From positions 1 to 12,384 of the forward strand of contig JAWXCN010000154.1 in the NCBI GenBank assembly GCA_034408725.1: a DNA stretch of 12,384 nucleotides, read 5' to 3'. Source of the DNA: Candidatus Hydrogenedentota bacterium. GTDB taxonomy: Bacteria; Hydrogenedentota; Hydrogenedentia; Hydrogenedentales; SLHB01. Of this stretch, positions 2-12,342 are shown in pieces (the stretch's first letter is position 1; each line of letters starts with the position of its first letter). Under the pieces are notes generated by a model. It worked only from the letters and a program-made list of their open reading frames with translations, did not search any database and was not told where the DNA came from. Both the position numbers and the translations under genes were made by a program.

Positions 2-1375
2 ATGTGCGCGTTCGGAAGCACGCGCCACCCGAAGTCCGCGGTTGAAGACGACGCAAACCTCAAAGCGCTGCTCGCCGCCGGCACCGAGATCGTCACCATC
101 TTCGCGAAGTCCTCGCGCGTGCAGGCGAAAGAAATCTTGCGCGTATCTCTCGATGAAAATGTCAAACTCACAGGCGAATCCGTAGCGTATCTCAAAGCGC
201 AAGGCAAACGCGTGTTCCTCGATGGCGAACATTTTTTCGACGGATTCTTTGATGATTCGGAATACGCGCTATCCGTGCTCGAAGAATCCTGGCGCAACGG
301 AGCGGAAGTATTGATCCTTTGCGACACCAACGGCGGACGCCTCCCTTCCGAAATCGCGCATGCCACTCGCGCGGTGATTGAGCGCCTGCCCAAAGCGCCG
401 ATCGGCATCCACGCGCACAACGACGCGGGCTGCGGTGTGGCGAACAGTATCGCCGCGGTCGAAGCGGGCGCGGTACACATCCAGGGCACGATCAACGGCT
501 ACGGCGAACGCACCGGCAACGCCAACCTCACGACGATTATCCCGACGGTGCAACTCAAGATGGGCGCGAAACTCGTCAGCGACAAACAACTCGCGAAACT
601 CACGCACGTCTCGCATCTCGTCGCCGAACTCGCGAACATGAACCCGCGCGATTCCGATCCCTACGTAGGCCGCGACGCATTTACGCACAAAGGCGGCATG
701 CACGCCGACGCAGTCAACAAACTCAAATCCAGTTACGAACACATCGAACCCGAAACTGTCGGCAACCGCACGCACATCGCCGTGAGCGAAGTGTCGGGCC
801 GCTCGAGTTTGTTGCAAAAAGCCGCGGACTTCGGCATCACCCTCGAGCGCGATGCAGCCGAAACGCGCGACGTGCTCAAGCGCGTAAAAGATATGGAAAG
901 CGAAGGCTACGAATTCGAAGGCGCCGACGCCTCACTCGAACTGCTAATGCTCCGCGCAAAAGGCCACGACAAAAAATTCTTCACGCTCCTCGGCTACCGC
1001 GTCAGCGTAGAAACATCAGACGGCAACGGCGACTCCAAATCCGAAGCCACCGTCAAAGTCGAGCTGCCCGATGGCCAGTGCGTACACACCGCGGCAGAGG
1101 GCGCCGGGCCCGTTGACGCCATCAACAACGCACTCCGTAAGGCGCTCGAAGGCAAATACCCCGAACTCGAAAAAGTCCACCTCGAAGACTACAAAGTCCG
1201 CATCCTCGACGGCCAATCCGCCACCAGCGCCAAAACCCGCGTCTTCATCGAATCCACCGACGGCGACACCGAATGGGATACCGTAGGCGTCTCGGAAAAT
1301 ATCATCGCCGCATCGGTGCATGCATTGCTGGATAGCATTGAATACAAGCTCTACCGTACAGCGAACAAGACATAG
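2..1375 (+). CDS. cimA: Citramalate synthase (LeuA/CimA family, DRE-TIM metallolyase with C-terminal LeuA regulatory domain); 5' end lies outside the window
   Basis: Motifs AFGST, DGEHFFDGF, LCDTNGG, GIHAHND, GTINGYGERTGNANL, YVGRDAFTHKGGMH, GYEFEGADASLEL and DYKVRIL are typical of the bacterial CimA clade. The ORF is open to the window edge. Confidence 0.9.
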   Translation: MCAFGSTRHPKSAVEDDANLKALLAAGTEIVTIFAKSSRVQAKEILRVSLDENVKLTGESVAYLKAQGKRVFLDGEHFFDGFFDDSEYALSVLEESWRNGAEVLILCDTNGGRLPSEIAHATRAVIERLPKAPIGIHAHNDAGCGVANSIAAVEAGAVHIQGTINGYGERTGNANLTTIIPTVQLKMGAKLVSDKQLAKLTHVSHLVAELANMNPRDSDPYVGRDAFTHKGGMHADAVNKLKSSYEHIEPETVGNRTHIAVSEVSGRSSLLQKAADFGITLERDAAETRDVLKRVKDMESEGYEFEGADASLELLMLRAKGHDKKFFTLLGYRVSVETSDGNGDSKSEATVKVELPDGQCVHTAAEGAGPVDAINNALRKALEGKYPELEKVHLEDYKVRILDGQSATSAKTRVFIESTDGDTEWDTVGVSENIIAASVHALLDSIEYKLYRTANKT

Positions 1376-1498: not shown

Positions 1499-2359
1499 TT
1501 AAATGGCCTTGTCCATAAACTTCAAGATGAGCACATCGCGCCAGCGATCGGGCAGCTTGGCAAGGAGCATTTGGATTCGGGCGTCTTTACCGACGAGGTA
1601 GCGGGTTTTTGGTTTTGCGGCGGTAAGCGCATGGGCGACGGCGTCGGCGACGACTTGGGCCGGCACGGCGGATTTTGCAGTTTGGCTTGCGCCTTTTTTT
1701 ATCATGGCGACAAGCGGCGCGTACAACTCCATCATGCGTGGCGGCAACGAATCTAGCAGGGCGTTGCCGGCGGCAACGGATTTTTCCCAGATCGGCGTGT
1801 CGATCGCGCCGGGTTGGACGAGCGCGACTTCGATGCCCCAGGGTCGCAGTTCCATGCGCAATGAATCGGTAAGGGCCTCCATTGCGAATTTTGATGCACA
1901 GTATGGTCCCCCCATAGGAATGGAGAGGCGGCCGCTTGTGGATCCAATGTTGACGATCCGGCCATGTGACGCGCGCAACGGTTCCAGAAATGCTTGTGTA
2001 ACGGCAATCTGGCCAATGACATTGACCTCGAGTTGTTGCCGCAATTTGTCGAGGGGGACAAATTCAAGTGGCGCGTTTATGCTGATGCCCGCGTTGTTCA
2101 CGAGTCCCGCGAGACCGGATTCGCCGGTGGTGGCTTTCACGGTGTCACGCGCGCTGATAATGGACGCTGCATCACACACATCGAGATATATCGCGGTGAA
2201 ACGGTCCGATGCCTGCGATTTTAGAGCATCGCCGTCGCTGTCTTTCCGCACGCCGGCGAACACCCGGAATCCGATACGGTCGAGGTGCAATGCGCATGCA
2301 GCACCGATTCCGGTCGATGCACCGGTGATAACAACTGCGCCTCGGGAGTGGGTAGTCAT
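1499..2359 (-). CDS. Classical short-chain dehydrogenase/reductase (17beta-HSD/RDH-like)
   Basis: TGASTGIG cofactor motif, LVNNAG, catalytic S and YCASK (YxxxK), 286 aa. Confidence 0.93.
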   Translation of the reverse strand: MTTHSRGAVVITGASTGIGAACALHLDRIGFRVFAGVRKDSDGDALKSQASDRFTAIYLDVCDAASIISARDTVKATTGESGLAGLVNNAGISINAPLEFVPLDKLRQQLEVNVIGQIAVTQAFLEPLRASHGRIVNIGSTSGRLSIPMGGPYCASKFAMEALTDSLRMELRPWGIEVALVQPGAIDTPIWEKSVAAGNALLDSLPPRMMELYAPLVAMIKKGASQTAKSAVPAQVVADAVAHALTAAKPKTRYLVGKDARIQMLLAKLPDRWRDVLILKFMDKAI

Positions 2360-2418
2360 TATTTCAAATCCTTTCGTGATTTGCAGCGCGAAGCGCCTTG
2401 GAGATACTGTTGTTTTTT

Positions 2419-2751
2419 TTAAGAGGGATTTAATCTCTTTTTGTAATTGGGGTCATAAGGTATTCCTGATACCAGAACGCCGCGCAGTTCCAAGCCGGCG
2501 ATGGCCCGCACGAACCAATGGGAATAAGCTCCGGTTGATTCAATGCACACGCCCAGGCACTCCCCCGCCTTAAGCGCCGGGGCAAGCCAATGGGCCAATT
2601 CAGGGATGCCTTTGGCATCGTTGGCCAAATGCCGTACCTCCAGCTTTGCCCATTCTGAAGTTTGAAAATGCAGGCCCGCCACGCACACATCAACCGTCGC
2701 CTTGGCAATGTCCACACCAATCCAAAAGCCGTCCTGCAATCGCTCCATCAT
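2419..2751 (-). pseudogene. IS110 transposase/recombinase remnant: N-terminal part of the RuvC-like DEDD domain fused in frame to the extreme C-terminus
   Basis: WIGVDIAKATVDV (first catalytic D) and VCIESTGAYS (catalytic E) are IS110 N-terminal motifs; RGVLVSGIPYDPNY resembles the IS110 C-terminal tail. The later catalytic D..D pair and the Ser-containing Tnp domain are absent. Start taken at ATG 2751 (GGAG 9 nt upstream); the ORF caller gives 2766. Confidence 0.85.
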
Positions 2752-2779
2752 CGTGTTACACTCCATTTCATTACACGAT

Positions 2780-2946
2780 ACGTCCGAAAGGGCGGCCTAC
2801 TTGTTGGGATACGAGCTTGGTATCGTCACCAGCTCCCGATACTGTTCACCGTCCTTCGGACACAAATGCAAATAGGCCTGATGCGGGAATCTCCAAATCG
2901 AGCTGTTCTACTAAACGCTCCAGTGCGGCATCCCTGCATCAGGCCC
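2780..2946 (-). ncRNA. IS110 bridge RNA (target-binding loop followed by donor-binding loop)
   Basis: Two long hairpins with internal loops. Target loop: closed by GGCCTGATGC/GCATCAGGCC (2875-2884/2936-2945), LTG TGCCGCACT (2930-2922), RTG TTTGGAG (2897-2891). Donor loop: closed by GTCCGAA/TTCGGAC (2782-2788/2855-2861), LDG ACAGTATC (2845-2838), RDG ACAAG (2804-2800). The guides match the flanking target and the element's own end junction. Confidence 0.88.
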
Positions 2947-2950
2947 TGTT

Positions 2951-2956
2951 ACTATA
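2951..2956 (-). promoter_or_regulatory. -10 box (TATAGT) of the predicted circle-junction promoter driving bridge RNA/transposase
   Basis: On circularisation TTAAAA from the right end (2422-2417) lies exactly 17 bp from TATAGT in the left end: TTAAAA-aaaacaacagtatcttg-TATAGT. Confidence 0.6.
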
Positions 2957-3092
2957 CAATTGCGGTAGCGGTAGCTACCGCTTTCAGTTTAAGACTCCAG
3001 CAGCGCCCCGCATCAGTCCAGACCACGCGCAATCCGAAGCGAAAGGGGTAGCTGCGTCCGAAGTGGACTGCGCTACCGCAGTCCAAGGCGCT

Positions 3093-3119
3093 GGAGTGCA
3101 GCGCGTAGCTGTCGCTTTT
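3093..3119 (+). repeat. Degenerate REP copy
   Basis: GGAGTGCAGCGCGTAGCTGTCGCTTT keeps the GGAGT foot, an imperfect stem and the CGCTTT tail. Confidence 0.5.
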
Positions 3120-3265
3120 CCTTCACACAATTACGGTTACATCATAATCAAGTGGGATTGCCCCAATGGACAAGGCAAGTGCCTGGTATATGCGCACCCT
3201 TGCGGGTATCATAAATACGCGCCAATACAGGCTGCGGCTGCATACGCGGAGGGTGGTGTTCAAGC

Positions 3266-4141
3266 ATGGCTATCGACCGCGAAGAGATCGACAAGCTCCA
3301 TGAAGAAGCTAAACGGGTCCGGAAAAACTTCCGGTACATCATTCAGGACCTGAAGCGCTCTCCCGAAAATATCGATCTGCTGCGTCAACGCGAGCACCTC
3401 AAAAAGCGTTACGACCAGATTCAAACCATGCTCACCGACGCGCGCGAAGCAAGGGACGCCCTCCTGGATGATGAACCGGAAGGGCAAGAAGTCCCGCAGA
3501 TCGATATGTCCATCTTCGAGCCAAAACCCTACGAGGTTCCCGTGGCGGTCGTGGTGCAGCAGAGGACAGCCTCGGCTCGCACTGGAGGGTCACCACTCAC
3601 ATTCAAGAACGTACGTATCGCTATTACGGCCGCGCTCCTGCTGGTATTGGTTCCGTTTTTCTACCTCTATTTCATGCGCAACATGCGCTTCTACGAAGTG
3701 CCGACACGGTCTATGGAACCTACGCTCCAGGCCGGCGACCGCATCATCGCCGTTGAACCGTCCCAGTACGCGCGCGGCGATATTGTCGTGCTGAACGACC
3801 CGCAAGCCCCCGGCGACTACCTCGTCAAACGCCTCGTCGCCTTCGCGGGCGATTCCATTGAAGTGGTCAACGGCGCACTACTGATAAATAACCAGCCCAT
3901 TGACGAACCCTATATTCGTGAACGTATGGAGTACATCTTCGGACCCGTTACGGTCTCCAATGAAGAAGTTTATCTGCTGGGCGACAACCGCAATGAAAGT
4001 GACGACAGCCATATCTGGCAATCCGGACGGCCCCTCTCCGAACTGCGCGGACGCGTCCACTTCATTTACAGCCCCTCGTCGCGCCGGAGCAGCCTCGACA
4101 ATCAGCGGGCACGGTTTCACGACGTCAAGTCGCCAGACTAG
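3266..4141 (+). CDS. lepB: Signal peptidase I (S26A) with long N-terminal cytoplasmic extension
   Basis: TM helix (IAITAALLLVLVPFFYLYF), catalytic Ser box PTRSMEPTL, RGDIVV, catalytic Lys YLVKRLV, LLGDNRNESDDS. Confidence 0.92.
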   Translation: MAIDREEIDKLHEEAKRVRKNFRYIIQDLKRSPENIDLLRQREHLKKRYDQIQTMLTDAREARDALLDDEPEGQEVPQIDMSIFEPKPYEVPVAVVVQQRTASARTGGSPLTFKNVRIAITAALLLVLVPFFYLYFMRNMRFYEVPTRSMEPTLQAGDRIIAVEPSQYARGDIVVLNDPQAPGDYLVKRLVAFAGDSIEVVNGALLINNQPIDEPYIRERMEYIFGPVTVSNEEVYLLGDNRNESDDSHIWQSGRPLSELRGRVHFIYSPSSRRSSLDNQRARFHDVKSPD

Positions 4142-4411
4142 GCAATCAAAAAGGCCCGTTCCGCTTCCGCAATCCAGTCCTCCTCCCCAAAAACATAATC
4201 ATTCCTGACTATTTGGTGTTTACGGCCCAACTTCTTTTGTTGTTCTGCGCCCAGTTTTGCCAGCTAGATTCTTATCGACAAACAAGTTACATAGTTTTTA
4301 GACTTGGCCCGCATTTTGCTCACTTAATGAAACTCTGGCTGCATGAACGGACTGTGCAGATAAGCGACGATGGCCGTGCTGGGAGCGCGGCCCAAGAAGG
4401 GCTCCGCATTG

Positions 4412-4654
4412 ATGAAGATGATCGAATCGAACGAATTCCGTCAACAAACGATTTTGTTATTGCAGGAGATGAGTACGGCGCTGCGATATCTCTCCACGGA
4501 AATTGACAGCGCCGTTGTCAGCGAGCGCAAGGTTGACCACGATCTCCTGCGCCGCATTTCGCAAGCCTTGCAGAAGCAGCAGGGCCATTTGCTCAAAATC
4601 GCCGAATCGTCCGACCCCTATCGCATGCGCCGCGAAGTAGCCGAATCACGATAA
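4412..4654 (+). CDS. Small helical hypothetical protein (~80 aa)
   Basis: Plausible composition with amphipathic helices; start uncertain (4370, 4412 or 4418). Confidence 0.55.
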   Translation: MKMIESNEFRQQTILLLQEMSTALRYLSTEIDSAVVSERKVDHDLLRRISQALQKQQGHLLKIAESSDPYRMRREVAESR

Positions 4655-4658
4655 CCCC

Positions 4659-4773
4659 GGGACTGTCCCTCCGAATCCGCGGCAGTATTCGGATTAGCAG
4701 GGACTGTCCCTTTACCGCAGGCAACGTCCCATTACGTTCCCGTGGCAGTACGCGGATTCGCAGGGACTGTCCC
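4659..4773. repeat. Three GGGACTGTCCC palindromes; the last two sit in a 30-bp direct repeat
   Basis: GGGAC-T-GTCCC at 4659-4669, 4700-4710 and 4763-4773; 4681-4710 vs 4744-4773 are 27/30 identical. Confidence 0.8.
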
Positions 4774-4845
4774 GTGTAACTGAAACTTGTGGGTCCGGGT
4801 GGAGCGTGGAAGCAGTCAGGAGCACTGCTTCCACGCTTTTAGTTT

Positions 4846-6183
4846 TTACGACGCAAGCCGTGGCGCAGCGTCTGCGCTCGCATCCGCGGGGCGTTGTGTC
4901 GAATCCATCGGGCCCGGATTCCCCGCGGTGCTTTCCGGGACTGCTTCGCACACGTACCGTTTGCTCAAGAACGCGCATGCCGCGCCGAGGACACCCGTTG
5001 CAATAAAGCACGCGTAATACCCTGTTTCGTGCAGATGATCGATGACATACCCGGCCGCGATCGGCGGCAACGCGACCGCCATCGACGTCCCGATACTCCA
5101 AATGTTGGTGTAAAGCACGCGCCGGTCCCGTGGCACATACCCCAGCATGGCCCGGTTACCGGCAACGTTGTAGGCCGCGTTGAACACGCTCGCAATCACG
5201 AAGACTATCCACAGCATAGGTGGCGTATACCCGGCCGTCGGCGCGAGCAGCATGCAGGCCACTGCGCACGCCGCGTGCCCGAGCATGGACCAAAACATCG
5301 CCGAACCGCTCCCGGCATAGTCCGCAAAACGGCCCCACGCGGCAATCGTAAGGAATATGCCCAGTGCCCCCGCCGCCGTGACGGCCATGATGACGCTCGG
5401 CTGGAACATTAGAATCTCGCGCATGAACAGTATCAGCGAAGAACCCAGGAGCAACGCGAGGCTCGCATACCCCAACGAGGCGGTAAACACGAACGCCATA
5501 AACGAGCGATCGCGAAACGCCATCCGATAGCCAACGTAAGAACTATGTGTGCTCGGAACACTTGCCGCTTCGCCCCCGGGGATGAGCGCCATCCACACCA
5601 GGCTGACTAGACCCGCCCCGATCCCGATGGCGTATACCATCAGAAAACGCCACGAGCTGACTTCTCCGAACAGCAGGGCCGCCTGGATAAGGGCAACCAC
5701 CACACTGGTCAACTGCGTAACCGCCGCTTCCATGCTGAAATACGTGCCCCGCTGAACGTCCGGCACAAGCTCGTGCAGCCACGGCAACCACCCGCCCGCG
5801 CCCATCGCCCGTAACACACAAAACGCCAGCACTGAACCAACCAGCAGGTACTGCGCGTACCGCAGCCCCCATGTCGTTGCCAAAGGAATGAAAAACACGG
5901 CGCAGGCCAGCAGGTTTCGCAAAAGCCAGCCCGCGAACATGACCCGCTTCGGCCCGTAGTGGTTCACCAGCGGAACGGTAAGGCCCACCAACAGCATCGA
6001 CAGGGGCATAAAGGAAATAAGGAAACCGATGAGGGAAGCCTGCATCTCCAGCGACCGCGCAAAAAGTATCAGGGCGGGGCCGACAATGCACTGCCATGAA
6101 ATGACATTGAACACAATAAAAAACAGAAAACGCCGGGGACCGGCGTCCAGCTTACTTAGCCCGCTTATCAGTGGGATTCCCAC
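4846..6183 (-). CDS. MFS transporter (about 12 TM helices)
   Basis: About 12 hydrophobic segments; motif-A-like NHYGPKR and GRFADYAG. GTG start at 6183 preceded by AAGGA; the ORF caller extends to 6219. Confidence 0.85.
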   Translation of the reverse strand: MGIPLISGLSKLDAGPRRFLFFIVFNVISWQCIVGPALILFARSLEMQASLIGFLISFMPLSMLLVGLTVPLVNHYGPKRVMFAGWLLRNLLACAVFFIPLATTWGLRYAQYLLVGSVLAFCVLRAMGAGGWLPWLHELVPDVQRGTYFSMEAAVTQLTSVVVALIQAALLFGEVSSWRFLMVYAIGIGAGLVSLVWMALIPGGEAASVPSTHSSYVGYRMAFRDRSFMAFVFTASLGYASLALLLGSSLILFMREILMFQPSVIMAVTAAGALGIFLTIAAWGRFADYAGSGSAMFWSMLGHAACAVACMLLAPTAGYTPPMLWIVFVIASVFNAAYNVAGNRAMLGYVPRDRRVLYTNIWSIGTSMAVALPPIAAGYVIDHLHETGYYACFIATGVLGAACAFLSKRYVCEAVPESTAGNPGPMDSTQRPADASADAAPRLAS

Positions 6184-6368
6184 GGTTCCGTCCTTTTCTA
6201 CCGAAAAACAACAACACACCCTTGCCTATGCCGTGTATATGCATCCTTTCCGGACCGCATTTGGTGGCAAAACGGCATTCGGCATTAAACGGCCTAGATT
6301 ACACGAAAATCCCGCCAAAACGGTAGCGAAAGTTTGTGCGGAGAAAATTGAGTGGATGCGCGTGAACC

Positions 6369-6451
6369 GCCTTGGACTGCGGTAGCGGAAATGCCTTGGA
6401 CTGCGGTAGCGGAGTCCGCTTCGGACGCAGCTACCGCTTTCACTTCGGATT
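6369..6451. repeat. Partial REPIN (GGAC-type half) preceded by a duplicated REP 5' part
   Basis: 6393-6451 is 56/59 identical to 10754-10812; GCCTTGGACTGCGGTAGCGGA occurs at 6369 and 6393 (24-bp period). Confidence 0.85.
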
Positions 6452-6550
6452 ACTCTTTTGCTGCGGACGGCACCTTCGCTTCGGATTGCAGGCTGTTTAT
6501 GGAAGAATGCGCTGTCCAAGCACAGCAAAGGGTAGGCCATCTGTGATAAA

Positions 6551-6675
6551 CAGCCAAAGCGGCGCCTTGGGGGCCGCCGCAGTCCAAATAGGCTTCTTTC
6601 CAAAACATTGGTTTTCGGAGAAGGATTATTTGGACTGCGGTGGCGAAGCGGGTAGCGCAGACACCGCTTTGGCTG
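6551..6675. repeat. Inverted pair of variant REPs
   Basis: CAGCCAAAGCGG...CCGCAGTCCAAATA (6551-6590) and TATTTGGACTGCGG...CCGCTTTGGCTG (6627-6675) are inverted counterparts with different loops. Confidence 0.8.
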
Positions 6676-6755
6676 GTTATGGGCGATGGCTTCGTGCGCA
6701 CCTTAAGCGTAGACCAACTGGGCGAACAGTAAAACCGGCAGCGCCTCCCCACAGA

Positions 6756-7259
6756 CTATGGCGAATACCGGTTTTTCGGGGTTGGGTCTGGGCGTTTGAC
6801 GGCGCGCCGGCCCCGCTTATGTTTCAACGCCTCATCCACGCTCGCCAGCAAATCCGGCTCGTTCGCTTTGGGCCGTTTCATCCGCTGCTCGCGCTCGCGA
6901 ATTTCGCCCATCAACTTTGCGGCGTCGCCGAACGCCTTGTTCAGCATCAGCCGGCAATGGAAGCAATAGTCCGCATGTTTTTGCGCGGGCCGCTCTTTGC
7001 ACGCGGCGCAAAGACGATCCGATTCGATTTCGTGGGATAACAGCGTGCTGTTCTCAACCAGCTCGATTACTTTTTCGAGGGGCACGCCCGTGAACTCCGC
7101 GATTTCCTCGGGCTTGCGCAACCCGTGTTTCTCGATGGCATCCAGCACGCGATCCCCGTATTCGAGAAATTCCGTATTGCACCTCGCGCACAAATTCTTG
7201 CCCGGTGTTTCGGCAAATATCTTGCCACACCTCGGACACTTCGATAGTTTATTCGCCAT
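6756..7259 (-). CDS. YvyF/TIGR03826-like protein: zinc ribbon - HTH - zinc ribbon
   Basis: CPRCGKIF..LCARC, then EEIAEFTGVPLEKVIELV (HTH-like), then CAAC..YCFHC. ATG at 7259 overlaps the coaE 3' end; the ORF-caller start 7460 lies inside coaE. Confidence 0.72.
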   Translation of the reverse strand: MANKLSKCPRCGKIFAETPGKNLCARCNTEFLEYGDRVLDAIEKHGLRKPEEIAEFTGVPLEKVIELVENSTLLSHEIESDRLCAACKERPAQKHADYCFHCRLMLNKAFGDAAKLMGEIREREQRMKRPKANEPDLLASVDEALKHKRGRRAVKRPDPTPKNRYSP

Positions 7260-7851
7260 GCCCGTGAAGCTCCTCGGCGAGCGCGTCGACGCGCGCGTAC
7301 AACGCATCCTTGCTCCCCGTATTCTCAATGACCCAATCCGCCAGGGCAAGTTTGCATTCCGGTGGCGTCTGCGCGGAAATCCGTTTGCGCGCCTCCGCTT
7401 CGCTGAGCCCGCGATGCTCGACCAGCCTGCGCACGCGTTCGTCCTCCGGACACAGCACAAGGATCAATCCGCTGAGGTACGCATCTTTCACGCCCTTGTC
7501 CGCGATCAACGCGGCATCGATCATCACCATCGCATTCCCCTCTTCCGCCAGCGCGGCGCACTTGAGGGCAATCGTCATGCCGATGGCGGGATGCACGATT
7601 GCGTTGAGCCTGCGCAACGCCTCCGGGTCCGTGAACACACGCGCGCCAAGTTTGGCGCGGTCAATCTTTCCATCCGTGAGGATTCCACTGCCAAACGCAT
7701 CCAACACGTCTTTCTCCGCCGCGCCACCTGGCGCAATAACTTCGTGGCCGACCGCGTCCGCGTCGATGACGGGTACCCCGTGTTTTGCAAACTGGCGCGC
7801 CACCTCCGATTTTCCGCTACCCGTCCCTCCTGTTATTCCATAAATTCGCAT
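7249..7851 (-). CDS. coaE: Dephospho-CoA kinase
   Basis: GITGGTGSGKS P-loop, VIDADAVGH, IDRAKLGARVF, LNAIVHP, RISAQ, ADWVIEN. Confidence 0.96.
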   Translation of the reverse strand: MRIYGITGGTGSGKSEVARQFAKHGVPVIDADAVGHEVIAPGGAAEKDVLDAFGSGILTDGKIDRAKLGARVFTDPEALRRLNAIVHPAIGMTIALKCAALAEEGNAMVMIDAALIADKGVKDAYLSGLILVLCPEDERVRRLVEHRGLSEAEARKRISAQTPPECKLALADWVIENTGSKDALYARVDALAEELHGHGE

Positions 7852-7879
7852 GGGGGTTATTGCGCCAACACCATCTTTT

Positions 7880-8021
7880 TCGTGCTCGCGCTCGTGCTCG
7901 TAATCGTGCTCGTGCTCGTAATTCGATCTTGATAAATTCTCGATGCGTTGTCGAACTTCAGGAGGGGATCGAAAAATCGATTACGATTACGAGCACGAGC
8001 ACGAGCACGAGCACGAGCGCG
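7880..8021. repeat. Inverted arrays of hexamer repeats (TCGTGC/TCGTAA)n ... (TTACGA/GCACGA)n
   Basis: Seven TCG(TGC/CGC/TAA) units at 7880-7921, seven complementary units at about 7981-8022, and a unique ~55-bp middle. Confidence 0.85.
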
Positions 8022-8044
8022 ACGGAATGCAGCGTCTATCCCCA

Positions 8045-10681
8045 TCACCGTCCACCCGGGCGGGGCAACCGGACCGTTGCTCCCCGCGTTTGCGCGATCG
8101 CGATCTTCAGAAGATTCCCCGCCAGAATCGGCTTCTTGGGTATGATCTCGACAAGTCGCTCGCTGCCGTCATAACCAAATATATGGTCCACCTGCTCGAT
8201 GCCATCCGCGCTTTCGCACACGATACTGATATCTTCGACCTCGTTCGGCACGCGAAGAACAATCGTCTTCAGATAAACGGGGCTGTCGAACGTGAGATGT
8301 ACGTACTGCCGGTACCCGCGTTCGTCATCTTCACGAAATTTTACCCATCCAAAACTGATCGGCGTGAACAACGGCGCGCTGAGCATGAACACCCCAATTG
8401 GCAAATGCGGCCGCAACCACAACGCGCCATCGGGCGCATTAAACTGAAACCCCTGTAACGCATACAATACGTGCCACGCGGACAACGACCCCATGTGCCG
8501 GTCTTGCGCCCACCCGCACGCGTTATTGGCTTCGAGGTCCCACATCATCGGCTGGTTAAACACGCGGCCCCGGCGCGCATGAATATTTTTGCAGTTTTTC
8601 TGCACCGAAAACAGTCCGCGATCCGGGTAGCCATGCGTGATCATCAGGCTCGCGTAATACGCGGTGTCGAACGCAGGCCACGCCTGATCCGCGCCCGGCG
8701 GAAACCCGAGCGCAGGCGGGTTCTCGCATGGCGAGCCGTCCGGCATGACACCGTGCGCGACTCCGTTGCGCTGATCGTTGAGTTTGCAGATTGCGCCCAG
8801 CGCCTTCTTCACTTTCTCCTGCGGGAACAACTGTCCCAAACACAAGAAATCCGCGTACCACTGTCCCGCCAGTTGCGCGGCATCGCACGCCTCATTGCGT
8901 TCCATCGGCGCGCCGAACATCCCCTCGGCGGAATAAAGACGGTAGTATCCGCCTTCTTCATTCCATAATTTGCGATCAAAACTTTCCAGCGCGCGGGGCA
9001 ACAGCTCTTCGTACTTGAGCGCCTCTTCCTTGTCGCCCAACCGCCGCGCCAGACGTCCATACGCCCTCAACGCCGCGATCCACAGGCTGCTAGTGTAGCT
9101 GTTCACGCCATACACCGCCCAGGTATCGCGTGTCATCGAGCAACCCGACTGCTCGGGCAGGCCGTCGCCGTCCTGATCATGTTGCAGTACATAAGCCATC
9201 GCGTCGCGCAGTCGCGGCATGAGATGATCAAGAATAAACCGCTTGCCCGTCATCATGTAATTGCGGTACGCCGTCAACACGAAAACAATGCTCGTATCAA
9301 GCATCGGGTCGGGCGTGTCCCCGTGCGAGGGCTGGTGCATGCACTCCATGCCGAGATACCGGAAAATGCGCCCCGCATTTTCTTCGTCCCTTGGCCGGGC
9401 AATGCACGTCAACTCGCCTTCTTCAAAGTTTGGAAAGAACAACAGCGACCCAATCGAGCTGTACAGATGCCGGTCAAGCGTCGAAGTGCGCGGAGCCGCC
9501 GGCGACTCGAACATCGCGAAATCGTTGCCCTTGGTGTACAGCGTATTGGTCGACAACACGTAGTTGTTGTTGATCAACATCTTGCTGAACCATTGCGGCA
9601 ACGTCGACGTCATTATCCGCCGTTGCCAGTCTTCGACCGCCTTAAAATAATACCGGTGATAGGTGAGGCCCTGCGTGGCCACCTCGATCGCGTTGCGAAA
9701 CGGGTTGGCGTATCCATTTCCATGATCGAGGTCGTTGATAATATAGCGCGGGCAATACCACGCCAGCGCATACACGACGCTGCGGGATTGTTGCGGCCCC
9801 AAATCAAACGACGCGCACAACGCCCCGGAATGACTTGATTCGTTACGCGAAAGGTTGTTGCCCAACCGCCCGCTGTCATGAAACTGGTTCCAGAACACTT
9901 CGAGCTCGCGCGGGTCGCGTTCGTTCCACCCCAACATCGTCACTTGCACTTCCCGCTGCTGGCCGATCAACAAAGCATAGTTGCCTTCCGCGTTCGTGCG
10001 GAACCCGTCGCGAAAACCGAATTCGAGGCCGGCAATCAGCCGTTGATTCGGATCGACCGGTTCGGGTTCGTTCTTTTTGTCCTGATCACGGCTGACCAAC
10101 ACCGGCCGGATCGGGCCGCGCCGTTCGGGAAACAGGCCGCGCGCGCACCCGCACAGGTTCTCCCAATTCACGACGACCGAAACATCGTAAGAAACGTCCG
10201 AGGGATTGTTCACAAAGAACGACATCAGGATTAGCGGGAGCGTGCTCGCTTCATGGTCATAGGGAATGATCGGCGTCAGTGCGCTCCACGTGAGTTCAAG
10301 TGGAAACTGCGGGTCCTCGAGTTTGTAATGCGAACACGGATACACCCCGCGCCACGCCAACCGTTGCGACGCGGTATACGGCGCGACAATTCCCGCATCG
10401 GTGAACGGCAGCGCGCTATCGGTTTGAAGCAGCCGCAACGCGACTTTCCCGCGCCGCGCCGCGCGCACGCCAACCAACGATCCCGCGGAGACGTCAATGC
10501 GCGTTTCGGCCGTGCGATTATTATTAATCGTGATGTTCCGGAACCGCCCATCCCGGCCCAGCTCGCAGCAACCCGCGCCAACGCCGCCCAACGGCACCCC
10601 GGCGGTTTGCTGCTCAGACTCCGCCGCGTCCATCGCGTCGTTAAAATACGTCGGCGAACCCTGTGACACCCTAACCTCCAT
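8045..10681 (-). CDS. GH116 family (GBA2-like) glycoside hydrolase, divergent
   Basis: N-terminal GVPLGGVGAG, PIIPYDHEASTLP, ALAWY; catalytic domain FAMFES, TLDR, DQDGDGLPE..TRDTW..GVNSYTSSLWIAAL, LWNEEGGYY, QLAGQWYA. Start could be 10634. Confidence 0.88.
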   Translation of the reverse strand: MEVRVSQGSPTYFNDAMDAAESEQQTAGVPLGGVGAGCCELGRDGRFRNITINNNRTAETRIDVSAGSLVGVRAARRGKVALRLLQTDSALPFTDAGIVAPYTASQRLAWRGVYPCSHYKLEDPQFPLELTWSALTPIIPYDHEASTLPLILMSFFVNNPSDVSYDVSVVVNWENLCGCARGLFPERRGPIRPVLVSRDQDKKNEPEPVDPNQRLIAGLEFGFRDGFRTNAEGNYALLIGQQREVQVTMLGWNERDPRELEVFWNQFHDSGRLGNNLSRNESSHSGALCASFDLGPQQSRSVVYALAWYCPRYIINDLDHGNGYANPFRNAIEVATQGLTYHRYYFKAVEDWQRRIMTSTLPQWFSKMLINNNYVLSTNTLYTKGNDFAMFESPAAPRTSTLDRHLYSSIGSLLFFPNFEEGELTCIARPRDEENAGRIFRYLGMECMHQPSHGDTPDPMLDTSIVFVLTAYRNYMMTGKRFILDHLMPRLRDAMAYVLQHDQDGDGLPEQSGCSMTRDTWAVYGVNSYTSSLWIAALRAYGRLARRLGDKEEALKYEELLPRALESFDRKLWNEEGGYYRLYSAEGMFGAPMERNEACDAAQLAGQWYADFLCLGQLFPQEKVKKALGAICKLNDQRNGVAHGVMPDGSPCENPPALGFPPGADQAWPAFDTAYYASLMITHGYPDRGLFSVQKNCKNIHARRGRVFNQPMMWDLEANNACGWAQDRHMGSLSAWHVLYALQGFQFNAPDGALWLRPHLPIGVFMLSAPLFTPISFGWVKFREDDERGYRQYVHLTFDSPVYLKTIVLRVPNEVEDISIVCESADGIEQVDHIFGYDGSERLVEIIPKKPILAGNLLKIAIAQTRGATVRLPRPGGR

Positions 10682-10750
10682 TAAAAAAACCGGACCAACT
10701 ACAGCGCGCGCCCAACAGCGCTCAAATCAAATCCGCCCTAACGCGCGCGG

Positions 10751-10890
10751 AGCGCCTTGGACTGCGGTAACGGAGTCCGTTTCGGACGCAGCTACCGCTT
10801 TCGCTTCGGATTGGAAGCGGTCTGGACTGATGTGAGGTGCTGCTGGTCTCTTGAAGTGAAAACGGTAGCTACCGCTACCGCACTCCAAAG
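10751..10890. repeat. Intact REPIN (GGAC-type REP, spacer, inverted GGAG-type REP) just downstream of the RAYT
   Basis: CCTTGGACTGCGGTAAC...GCTACCGCTTT ... AAACGGTAGCTACCGCTACCGCACTCCAAAG; homologous over its full length to the IS-interrupted copy. Confidence 0.9.
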
Positions 10891-10928
10891 CCACGCGTAC
10901 CAATTGCTCAAACCCATCCACCTCCACT

Positions 10929-11496
10929 TCACCAATCCCCCGAAACCTCGTAATCATCTTTTACATTCACCGTATCCGCCTTGAACCGGTAGATACTCCT
11001 AACCTGCGCCGGCGCCGCTACACGTTCAAACCACGCCGCTGAACCAATCATACTGATTCGCGACCGCAACGAGCCCATGCTTCACGGCGTTCTGGTGAAC
11101 GTAGTTCAATCGCGCCAGATACGATTTCTCATACGTCAACTGGGTTTCGCGAAAGTTGTACCAAACTCTTCTGCCTTTCGCGTCGTCGAGCCGGTTGACC
11201 CATAATGCCAGCTTCGAGTGAAGCTCCATCGATATATTCGACAAACTCGCCGCAGTTTCCTCTTCAATAGGAGAATGCGCCACGAAATGATAGTGGTTGG
11301 AAAATACCGCCCAAGCTTCGACGCGCCACCCATATTTTTGTGTGACTTTAATAAGACCGCGTTGGAGAATGGCCAACCGCTCTGCGCCTCGAAAGTGTTG
11401 CTCCTGGTTATAAGTGCTCGCCGTAACAAAAAAAGTCCCTGACTCGGAGAGCTGATGCACTGGCGCGTGTGGCCATGGAAAAGAAGTTTCGCTCAT
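10929..11496 (-). pseudogene. REP-associated tyrosine transposase (RAYT, HUH Y1 / IS200-IS605 superfamily) with a frameshift near 11043
   Basis: FFVTAST, AWAVFSNHYHFV (HUH), VWYNFRET, YVHQNAVKHGLV..Y.W (catalytic Tyr region). The called ORF stops at 11026, but another frame continues SAAWFERVAAPAQVRSIYRFKADTVNVKDDYEVSGDW* to 10929. REPs flank both sides. Confidence 0.85.
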
Positions 11497-11548
11497 GTGC
11501 GCAATGCTGTCACACCTCTGTTCTCGCCGCAACATGCCTTCGCATACT

Positions 11549-11880
11549 CCCAAAGCGGTAGCTACCGCTACCGCACTCCAAGGCGTCGAACTGCGGCGAA
11601 TCAACCTTGGACTGCGGCGTGTAAGCGCCGCTTTCACTTCATCCATACCGATCGCCGCGGATCATGTGGAAACCAAAGCCTATCGCCACCCCAAAGCGGT
11701 AGCTACCGCACTCCAAGGCACCGAACTGCGGCGAATCAACCTTGGACTGCGGCGTGTAAGCGCCGCTTTCACTTCATCCATACCGATCGCCGCGGATCAC
11801 TTTGCAAACCGCGGATCACGTGGAAACCACAAGCCTATCGCCACCCCAAAGCGGTAGCTACCGCTACCGCACTCCAAGGC
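11549..11880. repeat. BIME-like array of alternating inverted REPs (A-B-A-B-A) upstream of the RAYT
   Basis: A = AAAGCGGTAGCTACCGCTACCGCACTCCAAGGC at ~11552, ~11693 (6 bp shorter) and ~11848; B = CCTTGGACTGCGGCGTGTAAGCGCCGCTTT at 11605 and 11740. The linkers are also repeated. Confidence 0.93.
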
Positions 11881-12342
11881 TCACGTCAAATGTTTCGTCA
11901 TAATCAGCGCGTCCTCGTCCGTGGTCGGATAGTATCGGCGCCGGCGTCCCGTGACCAGGAACCCCATGCTTTCATACAAACTACGCGCGCGCACGTTCGA
12001 CTCGCGCACCTCGAGTGTCGCCGCCAACACGCCATTCGTTTTCGCCGTCTCAAGAATGTGCTGCAACAGCCGCCGTCCGTGGCCAAGGCCGCGGTGTATG
12101 TCGCGAATGGTGACGCTCGTGATGTGCGCTTCATCCAGTAACGGCCAATATCCGCCGTAGCCGATCAATTCGCCCCCGATTAGCACCACGACAAACTGTG
12201 ATCGCGGATGCGTGATCTCCTCACGAAACATTCCCTCGGTCCACGGTTCCGGATACGCCTCCTGCTCGATCAACAGAATTCCCGGCAAATGCTCCTCCGC
12301 GATGCGTTCAAAGCGAAGCTCCGTTTTCTCCGATACACTCAT
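11881..12342 (-). CDS. rimI: Ribosomal protein S18-alanine N-acetyltransferase (GNAT)
   Basis: IEQEAYPEPW, EAHITSVTI, RGLGHGRRLL (acetyl-CoA motif A), LEVRESN..A..LYE..GF...GRRRRYY...EDALIM. Confidence 0.93.
   Translation of the reverse strand: MSVSEKTELRFERIAEEHLPGILLIEQEAYPEPWTEGMFREEITHPRSQFVVVLIGGELIGYGGYWPLLDEAHITSVTIRDIHRGLGHGRRLLQHILETAKTNGVLAATLEVRESNVRARSLYESMGFLVTGRRRRYYPTTDEDALIMTKHLT

Follow-up and report, generated by a model that had tools for sequence, protein, structure and literature searches.

The window analysed here, 12,384 nucleotides (nt) long, is the entire contig JAWXCN010000154.1 (C154) of a metagenome-assembled genome (MAG) of a Candidatus Hydrogenedentota bacterium, whose assembly (GCA_034408725.1) comprises 5.17 Mb in 280 contigs and is 92% complete. 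It hosts a gene for a REP-associated tyrosine transposase (RAYT), several groups of repetitive extragenic palindromic (REP) sequences and, inserted into one of these REPs, a short derivative of an IS110-family insertion sequence (IS) with a bridge RNA and a truncated recombinase open reading frame (ORF) (Table 1). We are confident that the contig holds a REP/RAYT system together with the fossil of an IS110-group bridge-RNA element that once homed into one of the REPs. An earlier sequence-only reading of this DNA had described a RAYT gene amid REPs, REPs and their inverted doublets (REPINs) scattered between genes, and an IS110 derivative lying in a REP with matching guides; all of these are present at or near the places that it gave. 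Three features had escaped it, namely the internal deletion of the IS, the AT at its left core and the 153 CT-type REP cores of the genome.

The host phylum is small, mostly uncultured and under-studied. In the collection that we searched it is represented by 135 species genomes, 133 of which fall into one class.

Table 1. Features of the window, with the RAYT, REP and IS110 features first and the neighbouring genes last (aa, amino acids; a dot marks a feature given without strand)
Feature	Position	Strand	Details
RAYT gene, 156 aa	11026-11496	-	HUH H68/H70, catalytic Tyr Y132; stop codon starts at 11026
Intact REP doublet (REPIN-like)	10751-10891	+	134 bp from RAYT stop codon; cores 10757 (-) and 10878 (+); fold z -4.76
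REP cluster 5' of RAYT start	11549-11880	+	Five cores; hairpin fold z -6.73
G-type REP cluster, from MFS gene to zinc-ribbon ORF	6360-6700	.	Cores 6372, 6396, 6577, 6630; repeats D2, D4, I8, I9
IS110 element, 559 bp	2402-2960	-	Inserted at the CT of REP TACCGCA-CT-CCAAGG
Left part of interrupted REP doublet	2961-3125	-	Ends in hairpin GCGGTAGC-TACC-GCTACCGC, then A = left target (LT); fold z -5.69
Left core dinucleotide	2959-2960	-	AT; CT in all three full-length relatives
Bridge RNA	2775-2958	-	Donor loop: stem 2849-2861 with 2782-2795, left donor guide (LDG) 2838-2847, right donor guide (RDG) 2796-2806
Truncated recombinase ORF, 115 aa	2419-2766	-	Deletion joint near 2484/2485
Right end terminus ...AACAACAGTAT (left donor)	2404-2418	-	Identical in L035 and L036; matches LDG
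Right core CT (2402-2403) and right target CCAAGGCG	2393-2403	-	REP tail completing the interrupted REP
LeuA/citramalate-synthase-like gene	2-1375	+	Pfam-supported
SDR gene	1499-2359	-	Pfam-supported
Signal peptidase gene	3266-4141	+	Pfam-supported
MFS transporter gene	4846-6219	-	Pfam-supported
CoaE gene	7249-7851	-	Pfam-supported
GH116 glycosidase gene	8045-10681	-	Pfam-supported
GNAT gene	11881-12342	-	Pfam-supported

The REP family

Searching the whole genome for the core CCGCA[C/G]TCCAA returned 411 copies on 127 contigs, 12 of them in the window. As a control, the reversed pattern occurs 10 times genome-wide, and base composition leads to an estimate of about 7. The cores can be divided by their central dinucleotide into 153 CT-type and 258 GT-type copies. 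The CT-type consensus, CCGCACTCCAAGGCG, recurs 104 times as an exact string; 80 of the 153 CT-type cores fit T[AG]CCGCACTCCAA[AG], and one matches the guides of the window element exactly. Some GT-type cores have a different tail, CCGCAGTCCAAATAGGC, with 59 copies in the genome. The complete REP unit is composed of TTGGA(C/G)TGCGG, a G+C-rich hairpin whose 5' arm begins with GCGG, and TTT. Folded as single-stranded DNA, three hairpins of the window reach z-scores from -4.8 to -6.7.

The cores are mostly paired. Genome-wide we counted 101 convergent pairs with a spacing of approximately 105-160 nt, which correspond to REPIN-like inverted doublets, and 73 divergent pairs with a spacing of approximately 50-57 nt. 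Within the window, where we examined their position relative to genes, all 12 cores lie between Pfam-supported genes. The family has grown to about 411 copies, mostly as inverted doublets that are probably intergenic.

Four CT-type sites in the window are empty targets. One, TACCGCACTCCAAA, lies at 10876-10889 inside the intact doublet next to the RAYT stop codon, and three, all TACCGCACTCCAAG, lie at 11569-11582, 11704-11717 and 11865-11878 in the cluster on the other side of the gene. These are exactly the four empty targets listed in the sequence-only reading, which had also proposed to count the REPs genome-wide and the fraction interrupted: beside the 411 cores, this fraction amounts to one in 154 CT-type REPs (153 intact cores and the one that carries the IS110 element). 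The GT-type (or G-type) REPs are not targets of the bridge RNA, because GT replaces CT. On the opposite strand this sub-family reads TTGGA-CT-GCGG, and its members with the tail TCCAAATAGGC at 6536-6690 form divergent doublets about 52-57 nt apart.

The RAYT gene and its flanking REPs

The product of the RAYT gene matches the NCBIfam model NF047646 (REP_Tyr_transpos) over positions 8-145 of 146 with an E-value of 9.9e-21. Its sole match in the PDB is the Escherichia coli TnpA-REP (4er8, E 6.9e-5), with whose motifs H68-Y-H70 and Y132 align, and a search of the ESM Atlas returned IS200-like clusters only. The RAYT is an HUH/Tyr single-strand DNA enzyme related to IS200. Seven REP cores occur within 1.5 kb of its gene, two on the side of the stop codon and five upstream of the start. 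The two nearest cores, one on either side, share their orientation, and each side bears an inverted doublet. A gene flanked by its own REP doublets is the arrangement that defines RAYTs (PMC2817692).

There are five RAYT-like loci in the genome, and only that of the window has CCGCA[C/G]TCCAA REPs within 1.5 kb. The other four, some of them split or with stop codons, lie at C127:3254-3721, C98:54502-54950, C157:13083-13343 and C106:5559-5810. Three of these are flanked by repeat families of their own, with approximately 9-22 copies, and the locus on C106 shows only a five-copy trace. The repeat flanking the C98 locus begins with TGTAGCGC, a GTAG-type head.

The same association is found in related genomes. 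Homologues of the window RAYT (P0002) occur in 18 of 61 related genomes, the host genome (G000) included, at 22 places. We analyzed the flanks of 19 foreign loci, leaving out the matches on G040:C43 and G003:C361, which yielded no loci. At 40-66% identity to the window RAYT there are 16 loci in 14 related genomes, and the same REP type flanks all 16 of them. In 14 of these loci the adjoining REP cores differ from the window's by at most one mismatch, and in the other two (L016 and L019) variant cores of the same build lie on both sides. REPs are present on one side only at three of the 16 loci, two of which are at a contig end. None of the three loci at or below 38% identity has these REPs. 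The arrangement of RAYT and flanking REPs is kept across several families of the order.

These data support a specific tie between the window RAYT and the CCGCA[C/G]TCCAA family, and the link between this REP family and this RAYT clade on which the sequence-only reading depended extends to every analysed homologous locus of at least 40% identity. The REP family TTGGA(C/G)TGCGG-hairpin-TTT is thus probably mobilised by this RAYT.

The IS110 element interrupts a REP

Read on the minus strand, the insertion is laid out as ...AAAGCGGTAGCTACCGCTACCGCA-AT-TGTATAGTAAC...AACAACAGTAT-CT-CCAAGGCG. The left flank, ...CTACCGCA, extends to 2961; from there the element, beginning with its left core, continues to ...AACAGTAT at 2404. 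The flank at 2961-3125 has dozens of copies, at 75-90% identity, on other contigs, and the 557-bp body of the IS has no other match in the genome. When the two flanks are joined they rebuild a REP doublet that is 87% like 10751-10882; likewise, a 132-nt arm of the intact doublet is 87% complementary to 2961-3092. Since the flank recurs without the IS body and the flanks together rebuild a doublet, the REP is the target of the IS and not a part of it.

We compared the core dinucleotides at the two junctions. The right junction has CT and the left one AT, whereas three full-length relatives (described below) have CT at both. We also searched public sequencing runs for this structure. Both junctions and the deletion joint are spanned, with no difference, by contigs of four runs (two possibly from the source sample, two from different ones), which excludes that the deletion derivative is an artifact of assembly. 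The public-run contigs at this locus contain neither a joint that skips the IS, as an empty site would, nor a full-length form; contigs drop rare variants, so this result is silent on excision.

A bridge RNA with guides for the REP

Between the left end of the element and the ORF, a stretch of 191 nt adopts a fold of two long stem-loops, both of which contain an internal loop (-75.6 kcal/mol, z -4.86, none of 200 shuffled sequences as good). A consensus of four elements, composed of the window copy and its three full-length relatives, contains 44 base pairs, six of which show compensatory changes, and nearly all variable columns fall in guide positions and hairpin tips. By column, the RNA of the window is approximately 89% identical to those of the relatives, and all its stems are intact. 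A search of the whole window against Rfam in E-value mode gave no match, and hence no curated bridge-RNA family.

To read the guides we applied the rule established for IS621, in which the 5' side of a loop corresponds to the top strand of the left half plus the core, whereas its 3' side can pair with the core and the right half (PMC11208160). The target loop of the window contains (A)UGCCGCACU and AUUUGGAG. Its left target guide (LTG), UGCCGCACU, reads TACCGCA-(C)T, and its right target guide (RTG), UUUGGAG, reads CTCCAAG, with one G.T and one U.G wobble. The LTG thus fits at eight of nine positions plus the wobble and the RTG at six of seven plus the wobble. The fit of the donor loop is 9/9 for the LDG, AACAGUAUC, which equals the right end, and 5 nt for the RDG, which contains ACAAG, the complement of CTTGT. 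In each of the four elements, the donor loop (GAACAGUAUC ... CAACAAGUAGG) fits both ends of the element, AACAGTAT-C on the right and CTTGT on the left. In the REP, the LT corresponds to the 3' arm of the hairpin and the right target to the conserved tail.

Full-length relatives at the same site

Full-length elements with the same RNA were found at three loci. Two lie on metagenome contigs (L035 and L036) and encode recombinases 83% identical to P0004, a 339-aa relative of the truncated ORF; the third (L037) is in G040, a genome of the same order, and its recombinase is 53% identical. A phylum-wide search with P0004 at E<=1e-75 returned G040 only. All three relatives are inserted at hairpin-CGCA-CT-CCA, and their guides co-vary with their flanks. 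In L036 the LTG GGGCGCACU faces GGGCGCA-CT and the RTG UUUGGAG faces CTCCAAA, both perfectly. L035 pairs CACCGCACU with TACCGCA-CT and UGUGGAG with CTCCATA, with one mismatch and one wobble, and L037 pairs AUCCGCACU with TCCCGCA-CT and AUUGGAG with CTCCAAG, with two mismatches or wobbles on the left and one on the right. At all four insertions the hairpin ends one base 5' of the core. The host of L037 also holds uninterrupted targets, with 28 CCCGCACTCCAA sites against six in the control, and in that genome, too, the RAYT homologues have these REPs at their flanks. The IS110 lineage of the window element thus targets these REPs, as supported by four of its four known insertions, and the copies outside REPs that would have contradicted the sequence-only reading do not occur among them.

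The right end of the window copy has TCTTAA (within 2415-2424) where L035 and L036 have TTGACA. In these two relatives TTGACA overlaps the stop codon of the recombinase (L035:1548-1556 and L036:1421-1429) and stands 18 nt from TATGAT across the junction of right end, CT and left end. A circle-junction promoter has been described for IS621 (PMC11208158), and we suggest that TTGACA and the left-end TATGAT of the relatives could be a candidate for such a promoter.

Among 18 more distant IS110 loci (L038-L055) we read the targets of two by eye. L042 (in G066) and L045 (in G079), from the same class and 35-36% identical to P0004, have CT cores inside other palindromes, for example GTTCCCAAGTTGCA-CT-TGGGAA. 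Targeting of hairpins may be general among the IS110 elements of the phylum.

The recombinase has lost its catalytic core

P0004 was retrieved by searching 1.84 billion representative proteins with the 115-aa ORF. It is a full-length recombinase that aligns from end to end with IS621 (E 9e-37, residues 10-330) and with ISCro4 (E 8.8e-40). Residues 6-94 of the ORF align with P0004 residues 1-89, with 57% identity over 89 aa (BLASTP), and residues 94-115 with P0004 residues 318-338, with 13 of 22 positions identical. The ORF therefore joins the N-terminus of the recombinase to its C-terminal tail through an in-frame deletion of approximately 228 codons. It matches only positions 1-77 of the 155 of PF01548, at 23.8 bits against a cut-off of 29, and scores 32.9 bits against the 140 of NF033542.

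Aligned with IS621, the ORF retains the first D (GVDIAK) and the E (CIESTG) but has lost both later D residues to the deletion. On the domain map of IS621 (PMC11208158), the missing stretch covers the RuvC-like domain from its middle onwards, the coiled coil and the serine domain, and with them D102, D105 and S241 in IS621 numbering. The last 22 residues remain of the serine Tnp domain (PF02371), which is present in L035, L036, L037 and P0004.

We then looked for a recombinase that could act for the truncated copy. PF02371 has no match in the whole assembly, and PF01548 matches only the window locus. No other junction of the left or right end of the element occurs in the assembly, contig ends included. 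With the 115-aa stub as query, the 61 related genomes gave distant matches only, G040 excepted, and a scan of genome contigs gave one weak match, in a Thiorhodococcus MAG (35 residues, 50% identity). The window copy is non-autonomous and most likely an immobile remnant, since it encodes no complete recombinase and the search of the assembly revealed none that could replace it. The sequence-only reading had described a bridge element that exploits the REPs. The lineage targets these REPs at all its known insertions. The present tense does not suit the window copy, given the lost catalytic core, the AT at the left core and the 92%-complete assembly, in which no IS110 catalytic domain was found. 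That the RAYT may still be supplying new landing pads, as the same reading held, is likewise an inference.

Other repeats of the window

Two further repeats lie apart from the REPs. Between the CoaE and GH116 genes, at 7880-8022, the hexamer CGTGCT and its complement are repeated in two arrays, which constitute a 43-nt inverted repeat with a 57-nt spacer. The repeat of these arrays, CGTGCTCGTGCTCG, has 154 copies on 37 contigs and thus belongs to another abundant family, the second beside the REPs. At 4655-4775, downstream of a 94-aa ORF, there are three copies of a palindrome built on GGGACTGTCCC, with direct and inverted repeats of 24-34 nt; this 11-mer occurs only 13 times genome-wide.

Interpretation and alternatives

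The proposed history of the locus runs as follows. The RAYT would have mobilised the REP family up to its approximately 411 copies, and an IS110-group element would then have inserted at the CT of a CT-type REP. A later in-frame deletion of about 228 codons, and a change of the left core from CT to AT, would have reduced the element to its two ends, a bridge RNA that is still intact and a 115-aa stub. This remnant would not move by itself, and no helper for it was found in the assembly. The order of REP growth, insertion and deletion is what we infer from these remains.

Several observations weigh against this interpretation. The RAYT scores 74.2 bits against NF047646, where the cut-off is 80, and 14.3 bits (E 0.045) against Pfam Y1_Tnp, where it is 23, and because both scores fall below the curated cut-offs its family membership is formally borderline. 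The conserved end of the REP, TTGGA(C/G)TGCGG, differs from the classical GT(A/G)G head, and the GTAG head is a hallmark of the classical REP super-family (PMC2817692, PMC3733652). Three related genomes that are 93-98% complete (G002, G013 and G043) contain 79, 43 and 112 exact REP cores, respectively, and only distant Y1 homologues (24-35% identity), none of whose eight loci has these REPs; in these genomes the REPs thus persist, or arose, without a detectable cognate RAYT. Conversely, G003 has the closest RAYT (66%), yet only eight exact cores, its own REP core being a variant. On the side of the IS, a scan of 2350-3300 for sigma-70-like promoters found none, and only four insertions of the subgroup are known, two of which lie on short metagenome contigs without a countable genome-wide REP content. 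Finally, in an assembly of 280 contigs and 92% completeness a full-length helper may be missed, as repeats often fail to assemble.

This last point bears on an alternative in which the 559-bp element still works as a non-autonomous mini-IS110. A full-length recombinase, encoded outside the assembled sequence or in another member of the population, would then move it in trans. The well-preserved bridge RNA, with its stems intact, and a reading frame that stays open across the deletion would be expected of such an element, and action of an IS110 recombinase in trans is reported for ISPpu10, in a section heading of the corresponding preprint. Against it stand the single copy, with no end junction elsewhere in the assembly, the lack of any PF02371 match there, and the changes at both ends, with AT instead of CT at the left core and TCTTAA instead of the TTGACA of L035 and L036 at the right. 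We consider a working mini-element improbable.

A second alternative makes the RAYT a passenger among REPs that spread otherwise, for instance through another enzyme or through replication slippage and recombination, in which case no first tier would feed the other two. The three genomes with 43-112 cores and no close RAYT would agree with this, as would the scores below the family cut-offs in a clade whose activity is predicted. Yet all 16 homologous loci, which come from several families of the order, preserve the succession of REP doublet, RAYT and REP doublet. The other RAYT-like genes of the genome have none of these REPs beside them, three of the four having flanking repeats of their own, and the arrangement is the one by which RAYTs are defined (PMC2817692). 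Moreover, REPs that linger after the loss of their RAYT have been described in E. coli (Bertels and Rainey preprint). A passenger role is, in our view, quite doubtful.

We also considered a wider reading that would connect the two systems. The E. coli TnpA-REP cleaves at C/T, one site being GGCC/TACA (PMC3333891), and this cleavage site is the same CT that forms the core of IS621. In the wider reading, the IS110 lineage would have tracked one RAYT/REP family across the order, retuning its LTG to the REP stem of each host while its core stayed fixed on the invariant CGCA-CT-CCA that the RAYT needs. The CT may be the C/T cleavage site of the RAYT, as in E. coli, and the 559-bp stub, its bridge RNA intact, would be a mobilisable 'bridge-RNA MITE' (miniature inverted-repeat transposable element) and not debris. 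If the CT were indeed the RAYT cleavage site, IS and RAYT would compete for the same dinucleotide and each insertion would disarm one REP. We propose this reading as a speculation to which we attach little credence.

A chance insertion of the IS into a REP, or a REP-like flank that belongs to the IS, would fit the single copy in the genome but is extremely improbable, since dozens of contigs carry that flank and not the IS body, the two flanks together rebuild a REP doublet, the guides match the flanks, three relatives occupy the same position of the same REP type, and we estimate at about 0.005 the chance that a 9-mer and a 7-mer with at most one mismatch each occur in a 190-nt RNA. Our preferred interpretation remains a REP/RAYT system with a fossil bridge-RNA element in one of its REPs.

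Comparison with known systems

REPs are already established as targets of the IS110 family (Tobes and Pareja 2006; Durrant 2024; the work on ISPpu9; the ISPpu10 preprint), and REPINs have been noted as targets of insertion sequences (Bertels and Rainey). One of the closest parallels is IS621 of E. coli, 144 of whose 173 insertion sites are in REPs (PMC11208160). The two share the recombinase family, as seen in the full-length relative P0004, a non-coding RNA in the left end, upstream of the coding sequence, with two internal loops, a 3' loop side complementary to the core and the right target or donor, and a CT core, which the window copy has at its right junction and its relatives have at both. 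As here, the IS621 target is a REP, read through the 3' arm of its stem and its conserved unpaired end, and an A/G wobble separates the guide from its natural target (PMC11208160). Unlike in IS621, the target REP reads TACCGCA-CT-CCAAG, which is unrelated to the ATCAGGC-CT-AC of E. coli, the window copy has lost D102 and D105 together with the coiled coil and the S241 domain and carries AT as its left core, and the host belongs to a mostly uncultured phylum.

ISPpu9 and ISPpu10, IS110-family elements of Pseudomonas putida, also insert into REPs. The LT of ISPpu10 is the 3' arm of a stem-loop 5' of the core, which is the geometry of all four insertions described here, and many of its targets are intergenic and arranged as convergent pairs (preprint 10.64898/2026.03.19.712850). 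The P. putida elements differ in REP family and host, and their several active copies contrast with a single dead copy here.

The RAYT can be compared with the E. coli TnpA-REP (yafM), which together with its REPs and bacterial interspersed mosaic elements (BIMEs) is called the 'REPtron'. Both are Y1 HUH enzymes whose genes are flanked by their own REPs, and the REPs form inverted doublets (PMC2817692). Their similarity is very low (E 6.9e-5), however, and the REP head is TTGGA(C/G)T here and GTAG in E. coli. The RAYT, the REPs and the IS are thus all far from those of E. coli, in agreement with the distant lineage to which the sequence-only reading had assigned them.

The picture of three tiers, with a RAYT, its REPs and an IS110 element that targets them, is already known, as E. 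coli and P. putida hold the same tiers, and our finding opens no new mechanism. It extends the homing of IS110 elements to REPs, known from the Gammaproteobacteria, to a phylum that is small and mostly uncultured. In addition, it provides a natural example of an internal-deletion derivative with both ends and the bridge RNA retained; the abstracts found by a literature search on non-autonomous IS110 elements and bridge RNAs describe no such derivative, which is thin evidence that it is unpublished. For annotation, we recommend recording the 115-aa ORF as a truncated IS110 recombinase, naming the RAYT as such despite its sub-threshold score, and masking the REP family. Finally, the window element, L035, L036 and L037 form a natural four-point series in which the LTG changes with the REP stem, and which is useful for the study of guide evolution.

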